A program made the position numbers and the translations under genes. A stretch of 64,000 nucleotides of DNA. Origin: an uncultured archaeon. GTDB taxonomy: Archaea > Asgardarchaeota > Hermodarchaeia > Hermodarchaeales > Hermodarchaeaceae. Under the pieces are notes generated by a model. That model searched no databases and was not told the origin of the DNA. It saw nothing but the letters and a program-made list of their open reading frames with translations. Location of the stretch: positions 1 through 64,000 of the forward strand of contig CAYFXC010000002.1 of the NCBI GenBank assembly GCA_964347045.1, in the 5' to 3' direction. Every line of letters begins with the position of its first letter. Within the stretch, counting starts at the first letter, position 1. Of the stretch, positions 9,817 through 45,820 are shown piece by piece.

Positions 9817-10539
9817 TCAAGCGGTTAGGAGTTCAATGCCGCACTGGCTATCGCCCCGTGCCATACACCCCTTTCGACCAATAGTCTGCACATTCACGTT
9901 GCAGGTCAACGAAAGAAGTTTCGGGTAGTACATCAAGTGAAAATTACACAACAGACCTTCATATTTTCTACTTACTTCGCTGTACAGACAATTCTTTGTT
10001 GTGATGATTATCCTTTTTTTCTGTATTGCCACATGTGCATTATATCCAATTATATTCAGTTCTTGTCGCAGCCTTTGGCGGAAAGATTCAAGGCTCATAG
10101 GAAACCGAGAAGTTTGACTCCAGTTTTCGGCAGTAGCAATCGCAGAATTTACTCCCATTGTTTGAAATATGCGTTCTGTGGCCTCTGTGCCAATTTCGTC
10201 CAGTAATGTCATTATAATGCGATCAGATAGTTGCCAATACCTACGGGGAGGAATGGAAAATAGAAGTGCTTTTTTTAGAACATAATTTGATGATGGACGT
10301 CCGCGTCCTCTTTTTCCTGCCTTTTCTAAGGAGCTGTGAGCTATTAGAACATCTTGAGCAAGAAGATCAGAAATAACATACCGTACTGCTGCATCGCTCA
10401 GATTCGTTCCATCAGCAATTTCTCTAGTCGTTGAATTAGGGTTGGCAGCAATGAACTTTATAACAAGCGTGGCTGCAGTTAAACGATGATGAGTAAGCTG
10501 AGCGAAGGACTCACTACTAAGAATTTTTTTTTCAATCAA
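9817..10539 (-). CDS. ArsR/SufR-like winged-HTH regulator with Cys-rich (V4R-like) C-terminal domain, paralog 1
   Basis: HTH TTREIADGTNLSDAAVRY, wing RGRGRP, NCLY...LCNFH...CMARGDSQC. Confidence 0.82.
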   Translation of the reverse strand: MIEKKILSSESFAQLTHHRLTAATLVIKFIAANPNSTTREIADGTNLSDAAVRYVISDLLAQDVLIAHSSLEKAGKRGRGRPSSNYVLKKALLFSIPPRRYWQLSDRIIMTLLDEIGTEATERIFQTMGVNSAIATAENWSQTSRFPMSLESFRQRLRQELNIIGYNAHVAIQKKRIIITTKNCLYSEVSRKYEGLLCNFHLMYYPKLLSLTCNVNVQTIGRKGCMARGDSQCGIELLTA

Positions 10540-11447: not shown

Positions 11448-12230
11448 TTATGATTCGTTTGAGAAATATTTTAAAAACGGAACCAGCAACAACCCAAGAA
11501 GAAATACACTGTTAATGAATGGAATATAGAACATGGTCCAAAGAGCAAATCCAGACCAAAAAGCTAAAGTAAACAAGAGACTTGTCGCGACAAAGAGCGG
11601 TATCTGTTGAGTATTGCTGTATCGAAATTTCATGCATAGAATCAACACTGAGGACATAACAAGTCCTGTAAGAAACCATCCAATAAAATTAGAAAAGGGA
11701 ACACCATAATAGATTCCAGGAGTGAACCAAATCCAAATACCCAGATTAACAAGTATGGGATCGATAGTTAGATCAATAATTACTAAGAGGAGTGCACTAA
11801 GGAGTACAATCTTCCATGGTTTTTGAACATATTTAGTAGCAAATGTAAATGTCCCTAATAAGAGTGGAATGAAAGCAAATGGAACAACCCATGGAACTAG
11901 CCCAAATAGTTTGATTCCCAATGAATCGGAGTAGAAGAAAGAACCATATGGGATTCCTGTTAAAACTCCAAAGCTCTCAATGATAAGGATTAGAAAAGCG
12001 AGGATAAAGACAACAATAATGGTGTTTTGGGAACCGGCCCATCTGTAAAAGAAGTACAAAGAAGGTAAGATTGTGGTAATAATGAATAAATTGAACAGAT
12101 TAATTGGAATTAATGGATGGAGAACGAAGAAAATATAACTCAAGACATATGGACCTAGAATTACTAGAAGAAAAATGAGCAACCGATGTGTACCACTGTT
12201 GGCGCGGGATTCCCGAAGGTTTGCCGTCAT
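11448..12230 (-). CDS. cruF: Carotenoid hydratase, CruF/bisanhydrobacterioruberin hydratase family
   Basis: IESFGVLTGIPYGSFFYS, LGIKLFGLVP, DLTIDPILV, YYGVPFSNFIGW. TAATG overlap with lyeJ fixes the start at 12230. Confidence 0.88.
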   Translation of the reverse strand: MTANLRESRANSGTHRLLIFLLVILGPYVLSYIFFVLHPLIPINLFNLFIITTILPSLYFFYRWAGSQNTIIVVFILAFLILIIESFGVLTGIPYGSFFYSDSLGIKLFGLVPWVVPFAFIPLLLGTFTFATKYVQKPWKIVLLSALLLVIIDLTIDPILVNLGIWIWFTPGIYYGVPFSNFIGWFLTGLVMSSVLILCMKFRYSNTQQIPLFVATSLLFTLAFWSGFALWTMFYIPFINSVFLLGLLLVPFLKYFSNES

Positions 12231-13105
12231 TAGGTAATCACAATCTTTGGTATAGTTATTGTAATGAAGAGGATTAAACCAAAAACGGCGTTCCAGAATG
12301 GAAAAAGCCAATATATTCTGTTGATATTTTCTGCCTGACGAACTAACAGGTAGAGGGGCAAGACGGGATAGATGAACATGAGAAGATTCCATGGAGCGTT
12401 CCAAGGAATAAGAATTACAAGGATGATTGCAAAGATAAACCAGAAAGTAAGGCAAAGAATTAGAGAAGGGATGGCTCCAATAAAGACGGCGGTTGTTGTT
12501 ATATTAGCCTGTCTATCTGCATCAATGTCTGGAATAGCCGAAAAGAGATGCATTGCGGAAGTCCACATGAATGCCGCAAAGAGGGGTAATATTGGTGGAA
12601 TGATGAAGCGCAGTTGATAGAAAGCAAGAATTGCTGGGATTACATAGAGAAAATTAGACATAAAATCGAAGAATGGGCGAGCCTTAAACCTGATAGGTTT
12701 CGAACTATATAGAAACGACAATAATAGGAAGATACCAAAGAGTGCGATGGCAATAATATCGGGTTGAAATATCATTAAGATTAAGCCAAATACAAAAGAG
12801 ATGACTATGAGGGCAAGCAAATTCCGTTTATCTTTGGCAGTCACACGATACTCTTTATCGTCTTTTTTTGGATTGAAGATATCGGTATCTTCATCATAGT
12901 AATCGTTCACACCATATAGGAAAACATTAGCGGGGAACATGAAGAAAAAGAGTTGAAGCACAAAAAAGGGACTAAGGAATTGCGTGAGTGTAGTGATTCC
13001 AATTGCATACCCGATTAGGTATGTACCTCCTAAATAGAGCCAAAATCGTGGTCGAGAAATTCTAACCGCGAGCCTAGCAATGCCGATCAAATTTATCATC
13101 TTCAT
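12230..13105 (-). CDS. lyeJ: UbiA-family prenyltransferase, lycopene elongase LyeJ/CrtEb type
   Basis: SRPRFWLYLGG, YGVNDYYDEDTDIFNPKK, PIRFKARPFFD, MHLFSAIPDIDAD; lies between crtD and cruF. Confidence 0.88.
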   Translation of the reverse strand: MKMINLIGIARLAVRISRPRFWLYLGGTYLIGYAIGITTLTQFLSPFFVLQLFFFMFPANVFLYGVNDYYDEDTDIFNPKKDDKEYRVTAKDKRNLLALIVISFVFGLILMIFQPDIIAIALFGIFLLLSFLYSSKPIRFKARPFFDFMSNFLYVIPAILAFYQLRFIIPPILPLFAAFMWTSAMHLFSAIPDIDADRQANITTTAVFIGAIPSLILCLTFWFIFAIILVILIPWNAPWNLLMFIYPVLPLYLLVRQAENINRIYWLFPFWNAVFGLILFITITIPKIVIT

Positions 13106-14580
13106 TTATCATAGTGTCTATTGATTTGGTCAGTCACAATCTTCGAAGAGACAAGAGCCATTGGAACACCGATCCCTGGATGTGTGTATTGACCAGTGTA
13201 ATAGAGATTGCGTACCTTCTTACTTCGGTGTCGTGGACGAAAGAATGCGGATTGACGGAAGGTGTGAGTAAGACCCACAGCGGTTCCCTTAAATGCGTGA
13301 TAGTCCTGAGTGAAATCATTTAGTGAAAAGATTCGCTTCACACTTATGAAATCACGGAAAGACTCTCCAATAAGTTTCTCCATATGACTAATAATTTTTT
13401 CAAGATAAGTATCTCGAATCGTAGGCGAATCCTCAATCCCAGGTGATATGGGAACCGTTATGAAGATATTCTCCTTCCCTTTTGGAGCTACTAAAGAATC
13501 GAATCTTGAAGGGCAACACACATAATAAGCAGGTTTATCAGGCCATGCCGGATTCTCAAAAATCTGATCGAAATGCTGGACCCAATCATATTCTAAAAAG
13601 ACATTATGGTGAGTTAGCTGATCTAACTTAAGATCGACCCCTAAGTAAACTACAAAAGCGGATGGAGCGATAATCTTTTTCTTCCAATATTTTTCTGAAT
13701 ACGTTTGATATTCCTTATCAAGCAACTCTAGCTCACTGTAAGGATAATCAGCATTGACAACAATCAGATCTGCATCGATTGTTCCTTGTGTCGTTTGAAC
13801 CTGATAGGCCATTCGATTCTTAATTTCTATGCGAGAGGCTTCAATTCCAAATCGAATTTCAGCCCCCTGTTGTTTTGCTAATTTCATCAAACTTTCAGGA
13901 ATCTTTCCTATTCCACCTCGGGGGTACCAAACGCCCAGATTATAATCGATATGCGAAATGATCGAATACATTGCGGGGGTGTTCTTTGGATTGCCACCCA
14001 AAAACACAATGGGGTACTCGAGGATTTTTCGCGCACGATCACTCTTGAAAAATCTTTGCACATATTCATCGATGTTGCTCAAAATATGTAATTTTCGTCC
14101 TGCTTTCATCAAGGAGGGACTAAACATCGACCAGAAACTATCTAAATCTTTATACATGATGCCCTCCATCATGAAGTCATAGGTTTCTTTTGCTTTCAAC
14201 AAATACTGTGCTAACTTTTTGGCTCCACCTTTTTCGAAACCCTCAAAGGTGTGCAAATTGGGCTCAAGATCTGCTGTGATCTCGACAATATCATTGGCTC
14301 CAAAAAAAATCCGATAATTAGGATCAAGACGGATCAATTCATAATAATCTGAAACAGACTTTCCAAATTCGTTAAAGAAGTTCTCAAAGATTTCGGGCAT
14401 CAAATACCAAGAGGGCCCCATATCGAATACAAAACCTTCTGTTTCCCAAACCCGAGCACGACCTCCCGGCTCCAAATTTTGTTCAATCACTTCAACCTCG
14501 TAGCCTTCTTTGGCAAGCAGTGCAGCGGCAGATAAACCACCCACACCCGCACCAATAATCACTACATTCTGTGGTTTCAT
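13102..14580 (-). CDS. crtD: Phytoene desaturase-family enzyme, probable carotenoid 3,4-desaturase CrtD
   Basis: IGAGVGGL Rossmann motif, FDMGPSWYLMP, HPGIGVPM; first gene of the crtD-lyeJ-cruF order known from haloarchaea. Confidence 0.8.
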   Translation of the reverse strand: MKPQNVVIIGAGVGGLSAAALLAKEGYEVEVIEQNLEPGGRARVWETEGFVFDMGPSWYLMPEIFENFFNEFGKSVSDYYELIRLDPNYRIFFGANDIVEITADLEPNLHTFEGFEKGGAKKLAQYLLKAKETYDFMMEGIMYKDLDSFWSMFSPSLMKAGRKLHILSNIDEYVQRFFKSDRARKILEYPIVFLGGNPKNTPAMYSIISHIDYNLGVWYPRGGIGKIPESLMKLAKQQGAEIRFGIEASRIEIKNRMAYQVQTTQGTIDADLIVVNADYPYSELELLDKEYQTYSEKYWKKKIIAPSAFVVYLGVDLKLDQLTHHNVFLEYDWVQHFDQIFENPAWPDKPAYYVCCPSRFDSLVAPKGKENIFITVPISPGIEDSPTIRDTYLEKIISHMEKLIGESFRDFISVKRIFSLNDFTQDYHAFKGTAVGLTHTFRQSAFFRPRHRSKKVRNLYYTGQYTHPGIGVPMALVSSKIVTDQINRHYDK

Positions 14581-14778
14581 AGGGAATTTCCCTCTACTTA
14601 GGGTGATGTCTCTACTTACAATATTTAATGATTATCTGTTAATTCAAATGCTTCTTGTATTTTAAACAACAAAACAAATTTATTAAATAATTATTTTAGG
14701 AAAAGAGAACTTTTTAAAAGGAAAACCCTTCACCTAAAGAGAAGTGATATTCGTTAAATATGTAACTAGGGCGTTATT

Positions 14779-15735
14779 ATGATGATTAGGGGAGAAAGCT
14801 ATCATCTAGATGTTATTCCATCGCAAATCCGAATCAATGATAAGCGTACACAAAGTGACCTCAACCGCGCCTATGATTACTGCATGAAATTATTCAATAA
14901 GTATGCAAAATCCTTCTCATTCGCTGCGCGATATCTCGAACCTCAACAGCGCCGAAGTATTGCTGCACTCTATGGATTTTGCCGACTCGCGGACGACTTT
15001 GTAGACGAAATAAATCTCACACCCAAACAAATTGACGAAGAACTTAATGTTTTGGCTAAGATTATTACTCGACTTAGTAATGGTGAAACCTTTGATCACC
15101 CGGTATATCATGCCTTTGGTGACACTTTGATGAAATACGATATCCCTGTTAGATATCTCTATGAATTACTTGAAGGCGTCCGCATGGACATCTACCGACA
15201 AGAAATACACACACAAGAAGAGCTTGAGCTCTATTGTTTCCGAGTAGCCTCAACAGTTGGACTATCAATGTGCCACATCTGGCGAGCGATACACCCAGAG
15301 ACCCTCCAAAGAGCCGCAGAACTGGGAATAGCTATGCAGCAAACTAATATTCTACGAGATATTGCGGAAGACTATAACAAGGGACGAATTTACATACCAG
15401 CTGAGACACGAAAAAAATTCCGGATTCGCCTAGAAGATTTTGAAACCCGAAAAATAACTTCAAACTTCAAATACTTGTTAAAACACGAAATAGCGAATGC
15501 TCGAGCAAAGTATGCTTTAGCAGAAATCGGTTTACGAGATCTTCCACCTGCCGCATCGTTCACTGTTAAGGTTGCTGCCCGTATCTATGCAAATATTCTG
15601 AATGAAATTGAGAAGATAGATTACCAAATTTTCAAAAAACGAGTTTATGTGCCAAAATGGAAAAAGTTCTGGATTTCTTTCCAATGTCGTCGCGAATATC
15701 TTCATGATATGAAGGAATTTGTTCTTCACCCATAA
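14779..15735 (+). CDS. crtB: Phytoene synthase
   Basis: AKSFSFA, LYGFCRLADDFVD, YCFRVASTVG, QQTNILRDIAEDYNKGRIYIP. Confidence 0.93.
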   Translation: MMIRGESYHLDVIPSQIRINDKRTQSDLNRAYDYCMKLFNKYAKSFSFAARYLEPQQRRSIAALYGFCRLADDFVDEINLTPKQIDEELNVLAKIITRLSNGETFDHPVYHAFGDTLMKYDIPVRYLYELLEGVRMDIYRQEIHTQEELELYCFRVASTVGLSMCHIWRAIHPETLQRAAELGIAMQQTNILRDIAEDYNKGRIYIPAETRKKFRIRLEDFETRKITSNFKYLLKHEIANARAKYALAEIGLRDLPPAASFTVKVAARIYANILNEIEKIDYQIFKKRVYVPKWKKFWISFQCRREYLHDMKEFVLHP

Positions 15736-15780
15736 TTTTTCACAGCTATGAGAATACTAATCACTTAAGGTGAAAAGAGA

Positions 15781-17289
15781 ATGAACGATTCAAATTCACC
15801 AGAAGTAATTATTATAGGCGGAGGTTTTGGGGGCCTTTCAGCAGCCGTGAGAATTCAAGCTGCAGGATACCAAGTCACTCTCTTAGAGAAACGTCACCAG
15901 CTTGGAGGTCGAGCAGGAGTAATTGAACGAAAGGGATTCCGGTTTGATACCGGACCCACAATCATTACCCCGCCCTTTGTGGTTGAAGACATTTTCCGTG
16001 ATGCAGGACGAGATCCAGCGGATTATATAGAACTGGTTTCAATCCACCCACACTACCGCCTCCACTATGCGGATGGCACCCATTTTGATATCGGTACCTT
16101 CGAGGAAGTCGCAGAGCAAATCAAACAGCTAAATCCGCCTGATTTGGAAGGATACCGAAAATGGCTCAAAATTCTTGAACCTATTTATAAACTGGGATTT
16201 GAAAAATTTGCTATGACACCCTTTGAAAGCCTATGGAGCATGGTGAAGATTATTCCCCCTGCTATTCGCCTTAAATCTTACAAGAGCGTATATGGACTTG
16301 TTGCCAGTTACATGAAGAATGAGAAGCTTCGTATGGCATTCTCATTTGTGCCACTCTTTATTGGCGGAAATCCGTTCACTACTACTAGCGTCTACTCACT
16401 AATAGTCTATCTTGAAAACAAGTATGGCATGCTTTGGGTCCGGGGAGGAACCCATCGATTTGTCGAAGCATTAGAAAAATTATTCGTAGAACTTGGAGGA
16501 ACTATCAAAATAAATTCTGAAGTAACAAAAATTAAAATTGATGAAAAAAAACGAATGGTAACCGGAGTCATCACCGCAAACGGGGATCACTATCCAGCGG
16601 ATATTGTAGTGAGTAATGCCGATGTTGCAATGACTTACATGAAACTAATCGATAGACAATTTCGTCGAAAAAATAACGATAAGCGATTCAAAAAAGCCAA
16701 GTATAGTATGAGCCTTTTCATGGTATATTTCGGGACGAAAAAGAAATACCCCGAAATACCTCATCACAACGTCATTTTTGGCCCTCGCTATAAGGAACTA
16801 ATCAAAGATATTTTTGACCGTCATATTCTCCCTGATGACTTTTCCATTTATTTGCATGTTCCAAGTAGGACTGATCCAGAATTAGCACCGCCCGGTTGTG
16901 AAACTTTCTATGCTTGCGTTCCTGTGACCCACCAAGATTCGGGAATCAATTGGGAAGAAATGAAAGAACCCTTTCGAGACCGAGTTTTACAATATCTCAA
17001 TGACCATTACCTTCCCGATCTTTTAAACAACCTTGAAGTATGTGAAATCTTTACTCCACAGGATTTTGAACACGAGCTTAATGCTTACAAAGGCAACGCA
17101 TTTCAATTACAACCGCTCATGACCCAATCAGGGTGGTTCCGTCCACATAATCGATCTCGTGATATCAAGGGATTATATATTGTAGGTGCCGGAACCCATC
17201 CAGGTGCCGGAGTACCGAGCGTTTTACTCAGTGGAAAAATAACATCAGAACTTATTTTTCAGGATAATAAGAAACCAGCTCAAGAATAG
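15781..17289 (+). CDS. crtI: Phytoene desaturase
   Basis: IGGGFGGL, FDTGPTIIT, VGAGTHPGAGVP; directly follows crtB. Confidence 0.92.
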   Translation: MNDSNSPEVIIIGGGFGGLSAAVRIQAAGYQVTLLEKRHQLGGRAGVIERKGFRFDTGPTIITPPFVVEDIFRDAGRDPADYIELVSIHPHYRLHYADGTHFDIGTFEEVAEQIKQLNPPDLEGYRKWLKILEPIYKLGFEKFAMTPFESLWSMVKIIPPAIRLKSYKSVYGLVASYMKNEKLRMAFSFVPLFIGGNPFTTTSVYSLIVYLENKYGMLWVRGGTHRFVEALEKLFVELGGTIKINSEVTKIKIDEKKRMVTGVITANGDHYPADIVVSNADVAMTYMKLIDRQFRRKNNDKRFKKAKYSMSLFMVYFGTKKKYPEIPHHNVIFGPRYKELIKDIFDRHILPDDFSIYLHVPSRTDPELAPPGCETFYACVPVTHQDSGINWEEMKEPFRDRVLQYLNDHYLPDLLNNLEVCEIFTPQDFEHELNAYKGNAFQLQPLMTQSGWFRPHNRSRDIKGLYIVGAGTHPGAGVPSVLLSGKITSELIFQDNKKPAQE

Positions 17290-17300
17290 TCTTACGCCAT

Positions 17301-17795
17301 CTATTCTGGCGATCCAAGAGCAATCGTTTCGACAATATTCACCAACTTAACAATATTCAAAGGCTTCTCAGGACTAAGAGCTTGCCAACCCTCTGATGTC
17401 TTCAATCCATGTGCGGCAAGAAAGTTAGGTGATAATTGCCGAGAACCGACTTTTGCCATATGGATAATCGCTTTTTCCCTCTCACCAGGTTCATTCACTA
17501 TTTCAAGTTCCCCTCGGAAGACTACAAAACAATATTGATGTAAATCAGGTTTGTAGGTTTCAATTTCAACCGCAACGCGATTGTCGTGTTCAATCAGTTT
17601 CATTTTCTTTCCATAACGCGTGAAATGAAAGTAGAGAGTTCCATCAATATACGCATATTGAAAAGGAGACATATAGGGATATTCATCTCCCCGAAAAGCA
17701 ATTCGACATATCACCTGATTATGTAATAGCGCCTCAATCAATTTCCTTTCCATTTGAGGTAATTTCACTATAGAAATCTTATTCACCCCATACAT
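17301..17795 (-). CDS. Pyridoxamine 5'-phosphate oxidase-like split-barrel flavin-binding protein (NimA-like)
   Basis: CRIAF..EYPYMSP, LYFHFT..GKKM, VVFRG. The start may be GTG near 17768. Confidence 0.82.
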   Translation of the reverse strand: MYGVNKISIVKLPQMERKLIEALLHNQVICRIAFRGDEYPYMSPFQYAYIDGTLYFHFTRYGKKMKLIEHDNRVAVEIETYKPDLHQYCFVVFRGELEIVNEPGEREKAIIHMAKVGSRQLSPNFLAAHGLKTSEGWQALSPEKPLNIVKLVNIVETIALGSPE

Positions 17796-17852
17796 ACTTT
17801 AGGATGCCTTCTCAAATATATTCGATAGGGATTCATCAACAAGGGTAAGAAA

Positions 17853-19247
17853 TTGAGTAAATTATATAAAAAAACTCTTTTCATCTTTCGTCGTGATCTT
17901 CGACTAGTTGATAACACTGGATTAATTCGCGCTTTAGAAGATTCTAACCAAGTCCTGCCAAGCTTTTTCCTTGATCCCAGACTTCTGAAGCAATCTAGCC
18001 CACATCTGAATGCCATCCAATTCATGGCTGAAGCACTACAAGACCTAGATTTACGACTTCAACACCAAAACAGCCAACTGTTATTCTCTTCAGGTATACC
18101 TGAAAAAATGATTTTCAAACTATTGAAAACCTATGAAATTGATGCAGTGTTTATTAACCGTGATTATTCACCCTTCAGTCGTCAAAGAGATGCGCAAATT
18201 AGAAATGTATGTAAGAAGGCAAAGGTGGCATTTCACCAATTCGCGGATTCTCTGCTTAATGAACCAGAAATGATCCTTAAGGCCAATAATGAACCCTATA
18301 AAGTATTTACTCCCTATTTCAGAAAAGCCTTAGAACTCCCCATAAGTCTTCCAAAAGAAAATTCCTTCAAAAATTATGTAAAAATCAGACCAGGAAGCCA
18401 AAAGAAGGTAACAGTCCCATTCAAGCATATAAAAACCAAAAACAACAAATCACTTCTCGTTCAAGGTTCAAGAACTGCAGCTCTTGCTATTCTCTCAAAT
18501 TTACAAGACTTTAGGCAATATAAAATAACCAGAGATTTTCCTAATCAACATGGCACCACCCGCCTTTCAGCGTATATTAAATTTGGAAGTTGCTCTGTGC
18601 GCGAAGTATATAATGCCATCAAAAAGCAGCTTGGAATAAATCATCCACTTATTCGCCAACTCTATTGGCGAGATTTCTACACGCATATCGCGTTCCATTA
18701 TCCGCATGTGTTTGAGGGAGCCTTTAAACCCCGATATAATAAGATTCAATGGAACAATGATAAGATGCTATTTGAAACATGGCGCAAAGGAATGACAGGA
18801 TTCCCCATTGTAGATGCGGGTATTCGTGAACTCAATGAAACGGGTTGGATGCATAATCGTGTCCGGATGATTGTAGCATCATTCTTAACCAAAGATCTAC
18901 ATATCAATTGGCAGTGGGGAGAACGGTATTTTGCCAGCAAACTTGTCGATTATGATCCCGCAGTCAACAATGGAAACTGGCAATGGGCTGCATCAACAGG
19001 AGTTGACGCACAACCATATTTTCGAATCTTTAATCCATGGCTACAACAAATAAAGTATGATGCAGATTGTGAATATATCAAAAAATGGATTCCTGATTTG
19101 TCCAAACTTGAACCCAAAATCATTCACACATGGCATAAACCAACTAAATGGGATTCAAAAATTAAGTATCCAAAACCGGTAGTTGATCATAAAGTCGAAA
19201 GTCAATATTCTAAGGAACTATATGCAGCAACATTTTCAGCCAAATGA
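17853..19247 (+). CDS. phrB: Class I CPD DNA photolyase
   Basis: FRRDLRLVDN, YKVFTPYF, LYWRDFY, GFPIVDAG, WMHNRVRMIVASFL, NNGNWQW, FRIFNP. Confidence 0.96.
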   Translation: MSKLYKKTLFIFRRDLRLVDNTGLIRALEDSNQVLPSFFLDPRLLKQSSPHLNAIQFMAEALQDLDLRLQHQNSQLLFSSGIPEKMIFKLLKTYEIDAVFINRDYSPFSRQRDAQIRNVCKKAKVAFHQFADSLLNEPEMILKANNEPYKVFTPYFRKALELPISLPKENSFKNYVKIRPGSQKKVTVPFKHIKTKNNKSLLVQGSRTAALAILSNLQDFRQYKITRDFPNQHGTTRLSAYIKFGSCSVREVYNAIKKQLGINHPLIRQLYWRDFYTHIAFHYPHVFEGAFKPRYNKIQWNNDKMLFETWRKGMTGFPIVDAGIRELNETGWMHNRVRMIVASFLTKDLHINWQWGERYFASKLVDYDPAVNNGNWQWAASTGVDAQPYFRIFNPWLQQIKYDADCEYIKKWIPDLSKLEPKIIHTWHKPTKWDSKIKYPKPVVDHKVESQYSKELYAATFSAK

Positions 19248-19703
19248 TATTGAGTAACTGCCAATTGATCCCCAATTTTCAGTTTTATCGTTCTCAGATT
19301 TTTTTGCACAAAAATGAATTATAACTTGTGCCTTATCAAACATGCCGTTTTTTTCAAAAAATTCACGATCTCCATATCGGATGCTCTCTAATACGAGAGG
19401 TAACTCCCGACGAAAGATGCCTTCGCGGAATCGTCGTGAACCCAAACCTCGACTAACTTGACAGTAAACATTCAAAATACATTCATCCGCTTTTTGGACC
19501 AATTCAGCAAAAATCTCATCTCGCATTAAACGTGAAAACAAACCCCTAACCTGCTTTTTATCATATTCTGGTCCCACTGTAAGGAAAAGTTCCCCCGTTC
19601 GATCTGAATGAGTAAGAGTATATCTTCGTGGAATTAGAACATCAAGTGATTGGGGGAAAGGGAGGAAACGAACCTTGAGTTTATTTGGATTCAGTCTCGT
19701 CAT
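19236..19703 (-). CDS. Stay-green (SGR, Mg-dechelatase family) homolog
   Basis: PRRYTLTHSDRTGELFLTVG, RDEIFAE, IFRRELPLVLESIRYGD, VIIHF, ENWG: the characteristic Staygreen blocks. Confidence 0.9.
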   Translation of the reverse strand: MTRLNPNKLKVRFLPFPQSLDVLIPRRYTLTHSDRTGELFLTVGPEYDKKQVRGLFSRLMRDEIFAELVQKADECILNVYCQVSRGLGSRRFREGIFRRELPLVLESIRYGDREFFEKNGMFDKAQVIIHFCAKKSENDKTENWGSIGSYSISFG

Positions 19704-19731
19704 TATCGTTTCGCTGAATTGTAAATGGTTG

Positions 19732-20196
19732 TTATAGTTTTAATTCGGTAATTTTGGTGATTACTTCGTCGACATGACCGGGAACTCGGACCTGTGGCCA
19801 TATATGTCTAATTATACCGTTGCGATCAATAAGGAAGGTTGTTCGTTTTGCTGAACCAGTTTCAGGTTTCAATACATCATAGAGTTTGACAACGGTTAGC
19901 TCCTTATCTGCAATAAGTGGAAACTGCAGAGCGTTTTTTTCCTTAAACCCGGCTTGGCGTTTCACGCTATCAGTGCTTACCCCAACGACTTTCACCCCCA
20001 TACCCGTCAACCGAACCATATTATCTCTAAATGAGCATGCTTCCTTTGTACAACTGGGAGTACCAGCTCGGGGGTAAAAATAGAGCACTACGACGTTTCC
20101 TCTTAGTTGGCTCAGGGTAAGTTCAGAACCTTCATCTGTGGGTTGAGTAAAATCCGGAGCAGCTTCTCCAATTTTTGGCATTGTCACATCTATCAC
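19732..20196 (-). CDS. bcp: BCP/PrxQ peroxiredoxin
   Basis: VVLYFYPRAGTPSCTKEACSFRD (CxxxxC). The true start is probably 20187 or 20181. Confidence 0.93.
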   Translation of the reverse strand: MIDVTMPKIGEAAPDFTQPTDEGSELTLSQLRGNVVVLYFYPRAGTPSCTKEACSFRDNMVRLTGMGVKVVGVSTDSVKRQAGFKEKNALQFPLIADKELTVVKLYDVLKPETGSAKRTTFLIDRNGIIRHIWPQVRVPGHVDEVITKITELKL

Positions 20197-20248
20197 CTCG
20201 AAGGATACTAATAGGAATTCACTATAAGAATTTTAGATAAAGGGTAAA

Positions 20249-20276
20249 GTAATGAGGGGAATTTCCCCCTCATTAC
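20249..20276 (-). terminator. Stem-loop downstream of the fasciclin gene
   Basis: 11-bp inverted repeat GTAATGAGGGG/CCCCTCATTAC, followed on the minus strand by TTTACCCTTT. Confidence 0.6.
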
Positions 20277-20294
20277 AAGTCAATTCTACAGTTC

Positions 20295-20696
20295 TTATTT
20301 GGGCAAAATAACCTTGTCAATGACATGGATCACGCCGTTCTCAGCTTCTATGTCAGCTTTGATTACGTGAGCTTCATCGATTTTAACACCATCTGAGGCG
20401 TCAATTTGGATACTTTGACCTTGGACCGTTTTGATTTCGTCTTTACTAATGACGTCTGCGGCTTTGTATTTTCCTGCTACAACATGGTAGAGGAGTATAG
20501 CCTTCAGCTTTTCTGTATCTTTTAGAAGAGCTTCAACTGTGCCTTCAGGAAGAGCAGCAAAAGCATCGTCAGTAGGGGCAAATACCGTAAAAGGTCCATC
20601 ATTAGATAAGGTTTCGGCTAAACCAGCCGCGGTTGCAGCCGTTAACAGAGTGTCAAACTGGCCTGCATCTTTTGCAATTTTTACTATATTTTCCAT
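20295..20696 (-). CDS. Single FAS1/fasciclin domain protein without a signal peptide
   Basis: [33 protein letters not shown]. Confidence 0.95.
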
Positions 20697-20940
20697 GTTT
20701 CATCCATCCTTTTATTATGAACTCGAGGATGGTTGTGTTCAACCATTCTCGGAATTAACGATGTTAAGATTGAAAGTGGTATATAAATATTGTTCTTGAT
20801 TAAAAGATTATTTAAATAAAAATTATTTGTCTCCTATAACTATAACCCTGCACTTAACCAGTGAAATCACTCTAAATAGGAATCTAGTGATTCCGAAAGG
20901 AAAAGCCATTATCGACGGTGAGGCGATTTTATCCAATGAA

Positions 20941-21579
20941 TTATGCCTTCCGTACGCGGAAGAGGACAATTAACCCAAAGATGATTTTTGTGATCACATC
21001 TAAAGCCGCATAGAATATCGCAGCAATGAATGTTGTAATTAGACCGAATCCAGTTGGGGCAAGAATGAATACCAACGGAAAGAGTGACCAGAAAATTATA
21101 ATGAACCACATAAGTTGTGAATTTATTCCTTCTCTAGGTATACCCCTGAATAACGTGATTAAAAGAGCAATGTAGGCAATAGAACTGAACCCAAAGAACC
21201 ACCACCGCTCGATACCTGTAATAAATGCAGCTAGGAATCCACAAAACATCACAAGCATCGTCAAAAGAGGAATTTTCGCGAGATTGATTGGTTGTGTCTG
21301 TTTTAAAATAACTGCAACAGAAACTGTTAGTAAACTACAGCTACCCATATAAAAGAGCCAGCGGCTCCAGTAAATCAGTTCTCCAAAAGTTGAGGCGATA
21401 ACTGCAAACCCGAGCGCCATAAGAACATAAGAAATTGTAGTAACGAAAGCAACAAGGATATCAACCAATGATAGAAATTCGTCAGCTCCAGATTGGAATG
21501 AGAACACAGTAAACATAATCGTTGCGATACCAAAGATTGCAGCCATAATCCAAAAAACGAGTAATTCTATTCCAGCCAT
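20941..21579 (-). CDS. Microbial rhodopsin, schizorhodopsin-like (212 aa)
   Basis: 7 TM helices; helix C YWSRWLFYMGSC (Phe at the BR D85 position, Cys at T90), helix F FWSLFP, helix G LDVITK with the Schiff-base Lys198. Confidence 0.9.
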   Translation of the reverse strand: MAGIELLVFWIMAAIFGIATIMFTVFSFQSGADEFLSLVDILVAFVTTISYVLMALGFAVIASTFGELIYWSRWLFYMGSCSLLTVSVAVILKQTQPINLAKIPLLTMLVMFCGFLAAFITGIERWWFFGFSSIAYIALLITLFRGIPREGINSQLMWFIIIFWSLFPLVFILAPTGFGLITTFIAAIFYAALDVITKIIFGLIVLFRVRKA

Positions 21580-21625
21580 TTTTACAGCTCCTTTTGATAG
21601 GAAGGGTGAGAAGAAAGAGTACTAG

Positions 21626-21643
21626 CTTATTATAAAATATTTC
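21626..21643 (-). promoter_or_regulatory. Probable archaeal BRE/TATA promoter of the rhodopsin gene
   Basis: Minus-strand GAAATATTTTATAATAAG about 50 nt upstream of the ATG, with AGGAG RBS. Similar TTTATAAT at 22181-22188 and TTTATATA at 20780-20787. Confidence 0.5.
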
Positions 21644-21685
21644 AACTAGACGAAATAGCTGAGTAAAATCGAAAAGGAATCATTA

Positions 21686-22150
21686 CTAGCCATGAAATTC
21701 AGAGATTTTTCTTAGGACTGCATTCTCCTTTTCTTCTGAAAACGTTCCAGTATCTCGCCATAGGATATTGCCATCACAATCGACTAAAAAGAGATAAATC
21801 GTCTCCTCAGTGGGAATATCTAATGCCTGGGTAAATTCATCTTTGTTGATATACAGGGTAATCGTTCGAGCTCGCATTTCTTTATCGCGAATTCCGCTCC
21901 TCATTCCGCTATCAATCATCCATTGTGAAAGTACGTTAAATTTCCGTAACGTTGGCAATTCATAGAATTGGATTTGTGGATGTTTAGCAACTAGCTTCAG
22001 AAGAAAGGGAACCCAAGTTTCAATTGGAGCCACTTGCCACCGCTGAAATGCCACTACAAGAAAATTCAACTTTCCTTCCAATTTATCGGGAATGGTGTGT
22101 TGAACACCATTGAGGTCCTTTCCAGATACTTGAGGAAATTTCATTGACAA
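21686..22150 (-). CDS. ATP10-like / thioredoxin-fold protein
   Basis: FPQVSGKDLNG, LVVAF, FYELP, IDSGMRSGI, FLVDCDGNILW resemble prokaryotic ATP10-like proteins; no CxxC. Confidence 0.7.
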   Translation of the reverse strand: MSMKFPQVSGKDLNGVQHTIPDKLEGKLNFLVVAFQRWQVAPIETWVPFLLKLVAKHPQIQFYELPTLRKFNVLSQWMIDSGMRSGIRDKEMRARTITLYINKDEFTQALDIPTEETIYLFLVDCDGNILWRDTGTFSEEKENAVLRKISEFHG

Positions 22151-22283
22151 TCACAACCTAGAGTTTACAAAAGGGCTTCAATTATAAAATTTTACAAATT
22201 ACGGATTTATGATATTAGTTTTAAATTAAGCATAACGTTCCAAGATAGTATAGCCAAATACTGTATTGAAGAGATATTATATA

Positions 22284-23759
22284 TCACGGCATGTGAACCT
22301 GTTTCTGTGTCCTTTCAGCTATTCTAAGGCACATATTCTTCCAAATGTGGAGATGCATAGGTAAAGTAAATTTCCAGTAAACGATTCCTAATAACCCCTT
22401 GGGAATATATGTGATGATTTGCCTTAGTTCTGATTTCTTTTCCTTTTTCTTGCGAATTATAAATTCGAGAGTGGAGCGAGCAGGTATTTGAGTCTCCGCC
22501 TTCAATTTGAGATAATGGGGAGCATCTACTGTACTTATTCTCCAACAATCTAGTGCATCACCTGGACATAGATTATCACCATCAGTGCGACCTCTTCTGG
22601 TTCCTACTCCACCGATGAGTTCATCGAAACCACCATATATACGCCATAACCAATTGGCATAATACCACCCGGTTGGACCACCAATTTGAATAACTGGATC
22701 CCACAACTCTTCCGGGGTACAATCAACTTCAGCCTTTCGATGATCATAATATACCGTTCCGCCTGCCCAGGACGGGTCGTTAGGTTGAGTCCATTCAGGA
22801 ACAAAATCTGCTGTATTTGTTTGGAAACGAGATCGTTGAATTTGTTCGTCAATCTCTTGAAGAGCGAGTCGGATTGTGACTCGATTAGTGAGAAGCTTTT
22901 GGGGGATGAGTTTCCGAATTCGCTTTTCTCTACAGATGGTTTGGCTTTTTAACCCTTTAATAAGGGGTCTAGCGAGTGATTGCGGAAGCGGTGTTACTTT
23001 ATCAATCAAAAGTTCAGTTAGTCTTCTTCCCACAAATGGTAAGGGTATTAAAATCCGTTTTCTCAATTTAGCTTCCTGAGCAAACGTGTGTATAAGACCT
23101 GGATAGCTGATTACTTCTGGTCCCCCAATATCGAAGGTTTTTCCGATGGTTTCAGGAACTGTTAGACACTTCAAGAGGTAAGTGAGCGCATTGCTTATAG
23201 CAATTGGTTGTGTTTTACTCTGAGACCAGCGGGGTGTAATCATAATTGGTAATCGTTCAACGACGTAGCGCATTATCTCAAAAGATGCACTGCCTGCACC
23301 AAGCAACATGGCAGCTCTTAAGGTTGTTACAGGAACTGAACCTAATTGAAGAATTCGGGCAACTTCTGCTCTTGACAGAAGATGCTTACTTAATCTGTCC
23401 CGGCGATCTAACAAGCCACCTAGGTAGATAATTCGGTCTAATCCAACTTTTGCTGCTACCCCAGCCATATTTGACGCAGCGTCTCGATCGAGTTGAATGT
23501 ACTGTTTTCCCGAATACATTGAATGAACTAAATAATATGCAGTAGAGCAACCGTGAAGTGCATGTTGAAGAGTTTCTGGTTTCAAGACATCAACTTGAAC
23601 AGGTTGAACTCGGCTATCTTTCGCCCATGAACAACGTTTGAGTTTTATAGCTGATCGGAATGAAGCCCGAACAGCATATCCATTATCCGCTAATAGTCGA
23701 ACTAAGCGTTGACCGACATATCCCGTTGCACCTAGTACTAACACGTTTCGGGTTTTCAT
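22284..23759 (-). CDS. NAD(P)H-binding SDR/epimerase with C-terminal DUF2867 (YbjT-like)
   Basis: VLGATGYVG, YYLVHSM, GAGSASFE, IGGPTGWYYANWLW. Confidence 0.88.
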   Translation of the reverse strand: MKTRNVLVLGATGYVGQRLVRLLADNGYAVRASFRSAIKLKRCSWAKDSRVQPVQVDVLKPETLQHALHGCSTAYYLVHSMYSGKQYIQLDRDAASNMAGVAAKVGLDRIIYLGGLLDRRDRLSKHLLSRAEVARILQLGSVPVTTLRAAMLLGAGSASFEIMRYVVERLPIMITPRWSQSKTQPIAISNALTYLLKCLTVPETIGKTFDIGGPEVISYPGLIHTFAQEAKLRKRILIPLPFVGRRLTELLIDKVTPLPQSLARPLIKGLKSQTICREKRIRKLIPQKLLTNRVTIRLALQEIDEQIQRSRFQTNTADFVPEWTQPNDPSWAGGTVYYDHRKAEVDCTPEELWDPVIQIGGPTGWYYANWLWRIYGGFDELIGGVGTRRGRTDGDNLCPGDALDCWRISTVDAPHYLKLKAETQIPARSTLEFIIRKKKEKKSELRQIITYIPKGLLGIVYWKFTLPMHLHIWKNMCLRIAERTQKQVHMP

Positions 23760-26961: not shown

Positions 26962-27684
26962 CTAAAATTGTAGATGGATTTCAAGCTGACAATCATCATC
27001 CCCGTGTGACATGCAACTCACGCGTTCAACAGCGTGAACAGGTTTTTCGCACATCAATGAAAATATAGTCGGATAATAGGTATCGTGAAAATGACACATC
27101 AGACCTTCGTACTTGTAGCTAACTTCTTGGAAAAGACAATTCTTAGTTCGAATGACAATTCTATTGTCTTTAACTTCAAGGCTTGCATTATAACCAAGTT
27201 GGTTTAGTGTTTCTCCAAGTTTTTTTCGAAAAGTATTAATGCTCATAGGAACGCGATGATTTTGCCGCCATTGCCCCGCAGTATTATGTGCAGATTGAGT
27301 GCCCATATCTTTGAAGAGTGCAGTAGTGCCATCCTCCCCAAATTTCCAAAGTAAGGTTGAGATTAGGAGATCAGCTAATTGCCAATAACGTCGTGGTGGA
27401 GTGGTTATTATTAGGGCTTTTTGCAGACGATATCGTTGAGCAGGGCGTCCACGTGCACGGGGCTTTAAATTGTTAATATCGCTCTCTGTTATTATTCCAA
27501 AGGCGAGAAGATCGATTATGACGTATCGGATGGCGGATTCACTGAGATTAGTACCTTTGGAGATATCACTAACAGCGGAATTCGGATTTCTTGAAATGAA
27601 TTCAATAATCCGAGTTGCAGCTCTTTGACTATGAAAAGGAATCTGAGAGAGCGTCTCATCGTTTAAAATGAATTGATTTGCCAC
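26962..27684 (-). CDS. ArsR/SufR-like winged-HTH regulator with Cys-rich C-terminus, paralog 2
   Basis: RARGRP, PPRRYWQL, NCLF...MCHFH...CMSHGDDDC; collinear with 9817..10539. Confidence 0.82.
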   Translation of the reverse strand: MANQFILNDETLSQIPFHSQRAATRIIEFISRNPNSAVSDISKGTNLSESAIRYVIIDLLAFGIITESDINNLKPRARGRPAQRYRLQKALIITTPPRRYWQLADLLISTLLWKFGEDGTTALFKDMGTQSAHNTAGQWRQNHRVPMSINTFRKKLGETLNQLGYNASLEVKDNRIVIRTKNCLFQEVSYKYEGLMCHFHDTYYPTIFSLMCEKPVHAVERVSCMSHGDDDCQLEIHLQF

Positions 27685-44502: not shown

Positions 44503-45735
44503 TTATGCAAACGGCCAACGATTGAGAGCTTCATCAAGTTCTATATGTGATTTGGCATATTCTTCAAGGGATTGTCCAGCCATAGTGGCATCCACAGCCA
44601 TGCGCATCGCCATTGCACCAACTCTGGTTCCTCGGGGATGACCGTGGATGCCTCCACCCGCCTGAATAATAAAATCTACTCCGAATATATCAATGAGTGA
44701 AGGAACATGACGGGGATGTAGCCCACCAGAAGCGACGGGTAATGTGGGTTTCAAATTTGCAAGTGGTTCTTTGCATTTGCGAATATTGATTTCAACTTCT
44801 TCTCGGTCTTCAGACATCTTTCCAACTGCTGTCCCCACATGTAACTGGTCAATCCCAAGCAACCGTGAAGCTGTCACAATGACAGGCATAGCTATTCCAT
44901 GGTTGGGAAGTTTGGTGAATGCGGCATGCATAGCGCGATGTCCATGTAAAATCAAGTTAAACCCTTGTTTCCGGAGAGTTGCGACCGCCGAATAGCCACA
45001 GGTCAGAATATCGATCATGGCTACGCGACCTCCATGGTCTTCCACAAATTGAGCCCGCCGTAGCATTTCTTTTGTTTCTGCTGTAACATTAATCAAGTAA
45101 ACTTTTTTATCGCCCGTTTCGTCTTCAGCCCGATCTCGTTGATCTAAGGTGGTCACGACTCGTTCTTCGAAGGGATTAAACTTCTGACTGGCAAGATTTT
45201 CATCATCTTTGACTACATCACACCCCCCGGCCCACGCATCAAAAGCAACTTTAGCATGATCTTTGGTGCGTAATCCAAGTTTAGGTTTCACAATGGTTCC
45301 AATAAGCGGTCGTTTAACAACCTTAACTGTATCCCGGATACCTTTAATACCGTAGGCGGGCCCTGGAAAACTTTGAATCAATTTCTTTGGAAAATGAATA
45401 TCGAGCAATCGAAGGTATTGAATATCTCCCAAACCAAATACATTCCCAGCAACAGAACTCATGATATTTGGAAGGTTGCCCGGTTCAAAGAGTTCAATGG
45501 GATAGGCAACATGAGCAATATTATCGTTGAGTTTAAAGACAGACGCGGCGAGTTTTTTCATATATGGCTTCTCAGTAGTTAATTCCGTCCAAGTACCTAT
45601 TGAGCTTTCAGCCGCCACGCCCCCAGCAGCCCATTCCATGCTCTTACTGGGATCGCGCAGTTCAATTCGAAAAGTGCAAATAGTGTCACTGACCGCAGGT
45701 TTGTATTTGGGATTGTAAAAATCCTCATATTTCAT
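44503..45735 (-). CDS. rbcL: Form III RuBisCO large subunit
   Basis: AAESSIGTW, GTIVKPKLG, DVVKDDENL, HGHRAMHAA, VGKM, SGGLHP, GGGIHGHP. ATG 45735 follows GGAGG. Confidence 0.95.
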   Translation of the reverse strand: MKYEDFYNPKYKPAVSDTICTFRIELRDPSKSMEWAAGGVAAESSIGTWTELTTEKPYMKKLAASVFKLNDNIAHVAYPIELFEPGNLPNIMSSVAGNVFGLGDIQYLRLLDIHFPKKLIQSFPGPAYGIKGIRDTVKVVKRPLIGTIVKPKLGLRTKDHAKVAFDAWAGGCDVVKDDENLASQKFNPFEERVVTTLDQRDRAEDETGDKKVYLINVTAETKEMLRRAQFVEDHGGRVAMIDILTCGYSAVATLRKQGFNLILHGHRAMHAAFTKLPNHGIAMPVIVTASRLLGIDQLHVGTAVGKMSEDREEVEINIRKCKEPLANLKPTLPVASGGLHPRHVPSLIDIFGVDFIIQAGGGIHGHPRGTRVGAMAMRMAVDATMAGQSLEEYAKSHIELDEALNRWPFA

Positions 45736-45820
45736 TTGACTACCTCCAAATGTTTGAAACAATGTATAAGGAATTGTAATTAGTTGACCTAAAATCATTC
45801 TCTTTGTCAAGTTCAAAAAA

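Follow-up and report, generated by a model that had tools for sequence, protein, structure and literature searches.

A stay-green Mg-dechelatase homolog in a light-gene island of a Hermodarchaeum genome: conserved context and possible role

In plants, Mg-dechelation by the stay-green protein (SGR) commits chlorophyll a to degradation. What might a homolog of this enzyme do in an archaeon that makes no chlorophyll? The question is raised by a stretch of 64,000 nucleotides, referred to below as the window (contig CAYFXC010000002.1, GenBank assembly GCA_964347045.1, positions 1 to 64,000), in which the gene of an SGR homolog lies among genes for an opsin, a photolyase and carotenoid synthesis. 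The host belongs to Candidatus Hermodarchaeum (Asgard archaea) and is represented by a metagenome-assembled genome (MAG) from sediment, 2.58 Mb in 83 contigs, 88.9% complete and with 3.8% contamination. SGR homologs of non-photosynthetic prokaryotes dechelate chlorophyll in vitro (PMC8531759), homologs in archaea have already been published (as PMC8531759 reports, citing Obata 2019), and a 2026 preprint lists archaeal homologs and proposes prokaryotic chlorophyll degradation (bioRxiv 10.64898/2026.03.19.712979). Therefore, only the genomic context is new. The conserved light-gene context of SGR is absent from the literature searched, and it makes the native role of the SGR family testable.

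Family, active site and fold of the stay-green protein

The open reading frame (ORF) starts with ATG, and its product matches the Staygreen family along practically the entire profile (PF12638; E 1.7e-41, 141.9 bits against a cut-off of 27; residues 4-149 on profile positions 2-146 of 147). The crystallised homolog AbSGR-h of Anaerolineae bacterium SM23_63 (PDB 7Y5Y; PMC8531759, PMC11006732) aligns with residues 1-153 at about 50% identity (E 9.8e-40), and the nearest homologs are staygreen family proteins from MAGs of Thor-, Hermod-, Hod- and Promethearchaeota. None of the NCBIfam models matches SGR or the neighbouring opsin. An earlier sequence-only reading of the window had named the gene a stay-green homolog and pointed to THSD, RDE and YGD blocks with the likely catalytic His and Asp residues; both statements hold, and the blocks were found as T31-H32-S33-D34, R61-D62-E63 and Y110-G111-D112.

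The comparison with AbSGR-h, whose numbering is shared up to residue 86, shows how much of the active site is preserved. The D34N and D62N variants of AbSGR-h are soluble and inactive, and H32A is weakly active (PMC8531759); H32, D34 and D62 are all kept in the window protein, as are the residues described as structural in AbSGR-h (R26, Y28, T29 and D112, the D114 of AbSGR-h; PMC8531759) and those of the oligomer interface (T31, R61, E63 and R93, the R95 of AbSGR-h). Of the 16 residues predicted to line the pocket of AbSGR-h, 13 are identical, the changes being S35R, W55L and F59L. Across Asgard SGR ORFs, H32 and D34 are present in 60/60 and D62 in 61/62.

An AlphaFold2 model of the protein (pLDDT 88.7, pTM 0.85) superimposes on 7Y5Y in Foldseek with E 6e-20, TM scores of 0.88/0.90 and a root-mean-square deviation of 2.4 A. 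No other PDB chain was found at E <= 0.001, the next match having E 0.013. Neither a hydrophobic or transmembrane segment nor a signal peptide was detected (maximum hydropathy 0.54). The window protein thus almost certainly has the genuine SGR enzyme fold with an intact site, as judged from alignment and model; it is an ordinary new member of the family, predicted to be soluble, cytoplasmic and catalytically competent. Like AbSGR-h, it is a stand-alone soluble protein of a non-phototroph, with 155 aa against 161 aa; its host, however, is an archaeon. Plant and green-algal SGR/SGRL Mg-dechelatases, which feed the PAO/phyllobilin pathway, belong to the same Pfam family and have the same catalytic residues, but the window protein is a bare domain that lacks their transit peptide and C-terminal extension.

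In a tree based on about 150 aligned residues, the SGR copies of the genus group together. Their dN/dS has a median of about 0.13, against 0.06-0.07 in the neighbouring Bcp, fasciclin and opsin genes and 0.14 in the photolyase, all these values being rough because dS is near saturation. SGR is under purifying selection where it is present.

Light genes around SGR, from the genus to other phyla

In the window, SGR forms the 3' end of a co-oriented minus-strand row that consists of genes for an NmrA+DUF2867 protein, an ATP10-like protein, an opsin, a fasciclin protein, the peroxiredoxin Bcp and SGR itself, separated by gaps of 133, 106, 244, 98 and 28 nt. On the opposite side, the photolyase and SGR ORFs overlap tail to tail by 12 nt (19236-19247). 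Beyond the photolyase lie a gene for a split-barrel flavoprotein, crtI and crtB, followed by a crtD-UbiA(LyeJ-like)-CruF set. Photoreceptor, photolyase, carotenoid and antioxidant genes are thus clustered within 11448-23759, and the clustering is kept in relatives. The description of SGR as overlapping the 3' end of the photolyase gene, following bcp on the same strand and being embedded among light genes was therefore accurate. Farther from this island, the window carries complex I, an oligopeptide ABC transporter, a RuBisCO large-subunit homolog and other light-unrelated genes.

For comparison, the flanks of SGR, as far as 10 kb in either direction, were taken from 60 other Asgard genomes and analysed by tblastn and de novo clustering of the neighbour ORFs. 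Within the genus, SGR is present in 8/15 genomes; the arrangement PNPOx-photolyase><SGR-Bcp-fasciclin-opsin(-ATP10) recurs in six of the seven other SGR-positive genomes, and photolyase and SGR are adjacent in 6/8. Three genomes (G096, G102 and G104) have photolyase><opsin-ATP10, with SGR, Bcp and fasciclin all missing. In G101, the opsin-fasciclin-Bcp-SGR block has been relocated as one unit, leaving ATP10><photolyase behind. SGR is therefore an accessory gene of the genus, located at a variable spot. The Bcp-SGR spacer measures 28-35 nt in five same-genus loci, and because of these short spacers the two genes are probably co-transcribed.

At the genome level, co-occurrence was assessed in 400 Asgard species genomes, in which SGR is encoded by 108, heliorhodopsin (HeR) by 132, an opsin of schizorhodopsin (SzR) type by 27 and a PF03441 photolyase by 34. 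Both SGR and HeR occur in 81 genomes, SGR without HeR in 27, HeR without SGR in 51 and neither in 241. The naive odds ratio of 14 becomes 15 after stratification by family (Mantel-Haenszel), with the same direction in all five informative families. After collapsing to genera, HeR is present in 10/12 SGR genera compared with 20/73 others (Fisher p = 3.6e-4). The two genes lie within 10.5 kb of each other in 31 of the 81 genomes with both, in many of them at 60-300 bp; two genes present once each in a genome of 2-6 Mb would be expected to lie so close by chance in less than 1% of cases. Among the Hodarchaeota, a photolyase was found in 9/13 SGR-positive genomes versus 1/9 SGR-negative ones.

The loci of other Asgard families tell which genes recur. 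One neighbour cluster, at a median distance of 972 bp from SGR and represented in 17 loci of four lineages, is heliorhodopsin (Pfam, E 2.4e-85), and another, at a median of 137 bp, consists of classical short-chain dehydrogenases/reductases (SDR). Further clusters were assigned by Pfam to methyltransferases, DUF1295, PEMT-like proteins, a subfamily of the major facilitator superfamily (MFS), photolyase, UvdE and a PlsC-like acyltransferase; crtB/crtI, Bcp and two different photolyase domain architectures also recur. Hodarchaeota (f10) have the order UvdE-photolyase-SDR...SGR-HeR, and in two of their loci (L056:10447-11979 and L057:10477-11979) an NmrA+DUF2867 gene, 41-44% identical to 22284-23759 of the window, stands directly upstream of SGR. 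It overlaps SGR by 4 nt in L056, which suggests translational coupling, and lies five genes from SGR in the window. In Thorarchaeota (f31), Bcp is again just upstream of SGR, with SGR and HeR unlinked. In f20, the largest of the SGR-bearing Asgard families, the photolyase beside SGR has PF00875 only, an architecture unlike that of the window photolyase. The pattern is repeated with different gene orders, photolyase architectures and opsin families. As a separate observation, a closed f20 genome (L179, G187:C1:1558000-1576000) carries an SzR-like opsin, the SGR-linked MFS protein (517 bits) and the SGR-linked SDR together, while SGR itself has decayed to a remnant (66 bits) within the persisting neighbourhood.

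Outside Asgard archaea, the best 80 of 587 SGR-encoding stretches in GTDB species genomes were taken as loci, of which 56 are non-Asgard, and all these loci were searched with hidden Markov models (HMMs) that represent the neighbour clusters of Asgard SGR. HeR, photolyase or crt genes were found within 10 kb in 19/56 loci (Chloroflexota, Hadarchaeota, Bathyarchaeia and others). HeR is present in 10 of the 56 (Anaerolineae, Dehalococcoidia, Chloroflexia and Hadarchaeota), which has P ~2e-10 against an assumed chance rate of 1% per locus; a photolyase occurs in 8 of the 56 loci, one MFS subfamily in 10 and DUF1295 in 4. This MFS subfamily, a candidate pigment transporter, adjoins SGR in Anaerolineae, other Chloroflexota and Hodarchaeota, often together with DUF1295 (240-295 bits with the Asgard-built HMM; loci L112, L117, L134, L141, L150, L157, L158, L161, L165, L167 and L170), and is absent from the window island.

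The sequence-only reading had put forward co-occurrence with light genes as a check of its proposal. The outcome is positive for rhodopsins of HeR or SzR type, photolyases and carotenoid genes, and linkage recurs among the genomes of the genus, from one Asgard family to another and, outside Asgard archaea, in Chloroflexota, Hadarchaeota and Bathyarchaeia. Heliorhodopsin (PF18761) is absent from the host genome and from all 18 genomes of the family examined for it. Since Hermodarchaeum lacks heliorhodopsin, the link is to light genes in general. That SGR keeps its opsin and photolyase context in such a family speaks more for a joint function or joint regulation in the response to light than for a partnership specific to HeR and SGR, and a functional tie of SGR to the light response is, in our estimate, probable.

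Genes of the island and the host genome

Features of the island are collected in Table 1. Several of the products flanking SGR could themselves be connected with light. The opsin keeps the retinal Lys (DVITK), but its helix-C motif is R-F-S-S, not R-F-S-E, with Ser at the E81 position, and the same motif is found in 5/5 genus copies. The E81Q change stops inward proton pumping in SzR1 and SzR4, not in AntR (PMC8040798), and for this reason the window opsin may pump differently or act as a sensor. The fasciclin protein travels with Bcp in the genus; it has no hydrophobic N-terminus or signal peptide and is presumably cytoplasmic on that account. Given that AstaP, an algal FAS1 protein, binds carotenoid and is induced by photo-oxidative stress (PMC10147662, PMC7477208), the window protein could, by analogy, be a soluble carrier of carotenoid or retinal. 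The split-barrel flavoprotein gene beside the photolyase is conserved in the genus. Homologs of the ATP10-like protein recur near SGR, HeR or opsin genes in three Asgard families (L043, L074, L075, L077 and L090, including f12 and f20); no solved relative of this protein was found by sequence.

Table 1. Coordinates of the features of the SGR island in the window
Feature	Position	Strand	Evidence or remark
CruF-like hydratase	11448-12455 as listed; start uncertain, ORF overlaps UbiA gene	-	Pfam Caroten_synth
UbiA/LyeJ-like prenyltransferase	12230-13105	-	Pfam UbiA
crtD-like desaturase	13102-14580	-	Pfam Amino_oxidase
crtB	14779-15735	+	SQS_PSY E 1.7e-67
crtI	15781-17289	+	Amino_oxidase E 9.2e-35
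Split-barrel flavoprotein (Pyridox_ox_2)	17301..17795	-	PF12900 E 3.3e-19; divergent from photolyase
Photolyase/cryptochrome-family protein	17853..19247	+	PF03441 E 3.3e-79, PF00875 E 1.8e-40 (DNA_photolyase + FAD_binding_7)
SGR (Staygreen, Mg-dechelatase homolog), 155 aa	19236..19703	-	PF12638, 7Y5Y, AlphaFold2 model
Bcp/PrxQ-type peroxiredoxin	19732..20196	-	AhpC-TSA E 2.2e-39; 28 nt upstream of SGR
Near-perfect hairpin AATGAGGGGAATTTCCCCCTCATT in the fasciclin-Bcp gap	20250..20275		Sequence; possibly a transcript 3' end or an operator
Single-domain fasciclin (FAS1) protein, no signal peptide	20295..20696	-	Fasciclin E 6e-41
Schizorhodopsin-family opsin, 212 aa	20941..21579	-	Bac_rhodopsin E 1.7e-20; best PDB match SzR4 7E4G, E 5.1e-32
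ATP10-like small soluble protein	21686..22150	-	PF05176 29.3 bits vs cut-off 22.3
NmrA-like NAD(P)-binding domain fused to DUF2867	22284..23759	-	Pfam

The crtD-like, UbiA(LyeJ-like) and CruF-like genes, divergent from crtB-crtI, form a carotenoid set of the haloarchaeal C50 (bacterioruberin-like) type. A heterodimeric lycopene cyclase (PF18916) was not found, and PF15461 (Blh/BCD) had no match in the host genome or in any control genome, so that its absence from the host is uninformative. The matches to PF05834 (CrtY) are non-specific FAD enzymes, such as are also matched in E. coli and methanogen controls, and are equally uninformative on a lycopene cyclase.

L036 and L175 have hairpins similar to AATGAGGGGAATTTCCCCCTCATT in the corresponding place. 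A related sequence, GGGAATTTCCC, is present in exact copies at 14582, directly before crtD, and at 20257, with three copies in the whole genome. A shared regulatory motif of the island intergenic regions was considered and discarded, as only GGGAATTTCCC repeats exactly and these elements are best read as hairpins, not as a regulon signal. Two 240-aa ORFs that bracket the island (9817-10539 and 26962-27684, both on the minus strand) are possible regulators, one having a winged-helix helix-turn-helix domain and the other weak V4R/MetOD1 matches. Elsewhere in the window, the RuBisCO large-subunit homolog (437 aa, 44503-45816, minus strand) adjoins an EamA transporter gene. No Rfam family or tRNA was found within the window, and no 16S rRNA in the MAG. 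The possibility that SGR stems from contamination of the MAG was considered and rejected, because GC is 0.37-0.47 across the window, archaeal-type domains (TackOD1, MetOD1/V4R) are present on the contig, and MAGs bearing several distinct isolate prefixes share the synteny of the locus.

Substrate and role of SGR

Which substrate could the protein meet in such a cell? No match to Mg-protoporphyrin methyltransferase, photosynthetic reaction-centre proteins (Photo_RC, PF00124) or protochlorophyllide reductase (PCP_red) was found in the 88.9%-complete MAG, with the controls positive in Synechococcus, and neither HemB nor HemC had a match there. HemB is absent from 19/19 genomes of the family (72-91% complete). 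The host was therefore rightly called a non-chlorophyll archaeon, and the Hermodarchaeum lineage seems, from its gene content, to lack the capacity for tetrapyrrole synthesis, that of haem and cobalamin included. With HemB missing across the family, a tetrapyrrole substrate would have to originate outside the cell. For the same reason, the other photosensitising metalloporphyrins named beside chlorophylls in the sequence-only reading are unlikely substrates insofar as they would be made by the cell. Plant-type SGR acts with later enzymes of the catabolic route (PPH, PAO and RCCR) in organisms that make chlorophyll; the host genome shows neither chlorophyll synthesis nor, in the 88.9%-complete MAG, a match to PaO or chlorophyllase.

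We favour the following reading of the locus, although it falls a little short of an even chance. Pigments of chlorophyll type would enter the single membrane of the host from neighbouring phototrophs or detritus, and SGR would strip the central Mg2+ from the acquired pigment, with Asp34 and Asp62, aided by His32, acting as in AbSGR-h. Removal of Mg would begin the disposal of a photosensitiser of outside origin, and SGR would work alongside peroxide removal by Bcp, carotenoid quenching and DNA photorepair within a photo-oxidative defence set. The substrate itself, an exogenous Mg-tetrapyrrole of chlorophyll type, is proposed from sequence comparison and with similar reserve, leaning slightly to the doubtful side. 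The sequence-only reading, which had suggested the processing of scavenged (bacterio)chlorophyll, is supported in part: the homolog is intact and its placement among light genes is non-random.

Several observations weigh against this proposal. Pheophytin and pheophorbide stay strong photosensitisers (bioRxiv 10.64898/2026.03.19.712979), so that taking out the Mg would not by itself remove the toxicity. Neither PaO nor chlorophyllase had a match in the 88.9%-complete MAG (Synechococcus controls positive; RCCR and PPH were not searched), the island contains no downstream chlorophyll catabolic enzyme, and, unlike the MFS-linked loci elsewhere, it has no transporter or exporter adjoining SGR. Two pocket positions, W55 and F59, are Leu in the window protein. 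SGR is dispensable, being lacking from 7/15 genus genomes; the G094 and G100 loci have the arrangement photolyase><Bcp-fasciclin-opsin with SGR alone missing, and G094 has SGR elsewhere. In addition, the co-occurrence p-values overstate the association, because kin are not independent.

Two further explanations keep a chemical role for SGR and change its object. Prokaryotic homologs differ greatly in how they act on chlorophyll, and their activity has been interpreted as promiscuous, according to PMC8531759, citing Obata 2019, which also weighs against the favoured reading. In one explanation, SGR is linked to light and works on another native ligand, hydrophobic or metal-bearing, with chlorophyll dechelation as a side activity of its homologs. 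Besides the variable activity, this explanation draws on the failure to find PaO and chlorophyllase in the genome and on recurrent neighbours of lipid/isoprenoid type (SDR, NmrA+DUF2867, DUF1295, PEMT-like proteins and methyltransferases). We consider it rather unlikely, since the protein, at about 50% identity, retains the catalytic Asp and His residues as well as 13/16 pocket residues of an enzyme proven to dechelate chlorophyll, and an alternative substrate is known for no member of the SGR family. Alternatively, SGR might initiate the catabolism of chlorophyll from detritus as a source of phytol, carbon or Mg, with light being irrelevant. The host is a sediment heterotroph, and prokaryotic chlorophyll degradation has been proposed in the preprint that lists archaeal SGR homologs (bioRxiv 10.64898/2026.03.19.712979); however, the same missing chlorophyllase and PaO count against nutritional catabolism, and it would leave unexplained why rhodopsin, photolyase, UvdE and carotenoid genes are found linked to SGR time and again in different phyla, which makes it improbable.

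The remaining explanations concern the link itself. Heliorhodopsins have been reported to control glutamine synthetase, photolyase or an ABC exporter (PMC9769723, PMC11109279), and with SGR lying 60-300 bp from HeR in many genomes, it might be a partner or regulator of the rhodopsin, acting as a soluble effector or carrying a ligand under the control of the opsin next to it. This appears very improbable: the family has no HeR, yet its SGR stays among light genes with an opsin of another family, two genes lie between the window opsin and SGR, SGR lies away from the opsin in G094, and Thorarchaeota have SGR and HeR unlinked. The absence of any functional link, with SGR at a variable, insertion-prone spot and the wider associations reflecting shared ancestry, habitat or cassette transfer, would agree with the varying presence of SGR, Bcp and fasciclin at this spot within the genus and with the non-independence of kin. 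We regard it as improbable too, given that the association points the same way in each of five Asgard families and also when genera are compared, and that it recurs with different gene orders, with different photolyase and opsin families, and in other phyla.

Handling of exogenous pigment in a photo-oxidative defence set can also be compared with known systems. The sigma-E regulon of Rhodobacter sphaeroides includes a photolyase. The Chlamydomonas genes of SAK1-dependent acclimation to singlet oxygen comprise DUF1295, a fasciclin-like protein, CFA-type methyltransferases, a peroxidase and transporters (PMC4067076), the same families as those that surround prokaryotic SGR. Both regulons, the Rhodobacter one as it is cited in PMC4067076, are dispersed, have known regulators and belong to phototrophs, unlike the window, which has a physical gene cluster in a non-phototroph. 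In described heliorhodopsin neighbourhoods, the opsin is clustered with photolyase, SDR, transporter, redox and carotenoid genes (TfHeR-photolyase, PMC9769723; ten neighbour groups, PMC11109279; oxidative-stress neighbours, PMC8612252). SGR sits inside such neighbourhoods in other Asgard families and Chloroflexota, and differs in the window, where the host genome has no HeR and the opsin is of the schizorhodopsin family. SGR is absent from the published HeR neighbour groups, where photolyase, SDR, ABC transporters, redox and carotenoid genes are listed (PMC8612252, PMC11109279), and our literature search found no paper joining heliorhodopsin with staygreen or stay-green. The genomic context of AbSGR-h is not discussed in the published work consulted on that protein (PMC8531759, PMC11006732).

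Thus, the reproducible link of SGR to opsins, photolyases, carotenoid and antioxidant genes, which spans Asgard archaea, Hadarchaeota, Bathyarchaeia and Chloroflexota, offers a concrete hypothesis for homologs of non-photosynthetic prokaryotes, namely the light-coupled handling of exogenous photosensitising pigment. The window adds that the link survives the replacement of heliorhodopsin by an opsin of schizorhodopsin type, in a host family without HemB. A wider proposal, which we find doubtful on balance, is that heterotrophs with a single membrane have an ancient photoprotection kit linked to rhodopsins and photolyases, and that SGR homologs of prokaryotes form the part of it that deals with pigments, in which they would neutralise chlorophyll picked up from phototroph neighbours; the plant enzyme would then descend from an anti-phototoxicity defence and not from a promiscuous enzyme of unrelated role. 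The context of SGR bears both on the function of heliorhodopsin and schizorhodopsin neighbourhoods and on the origin of chlorophyll breakdown in plants.

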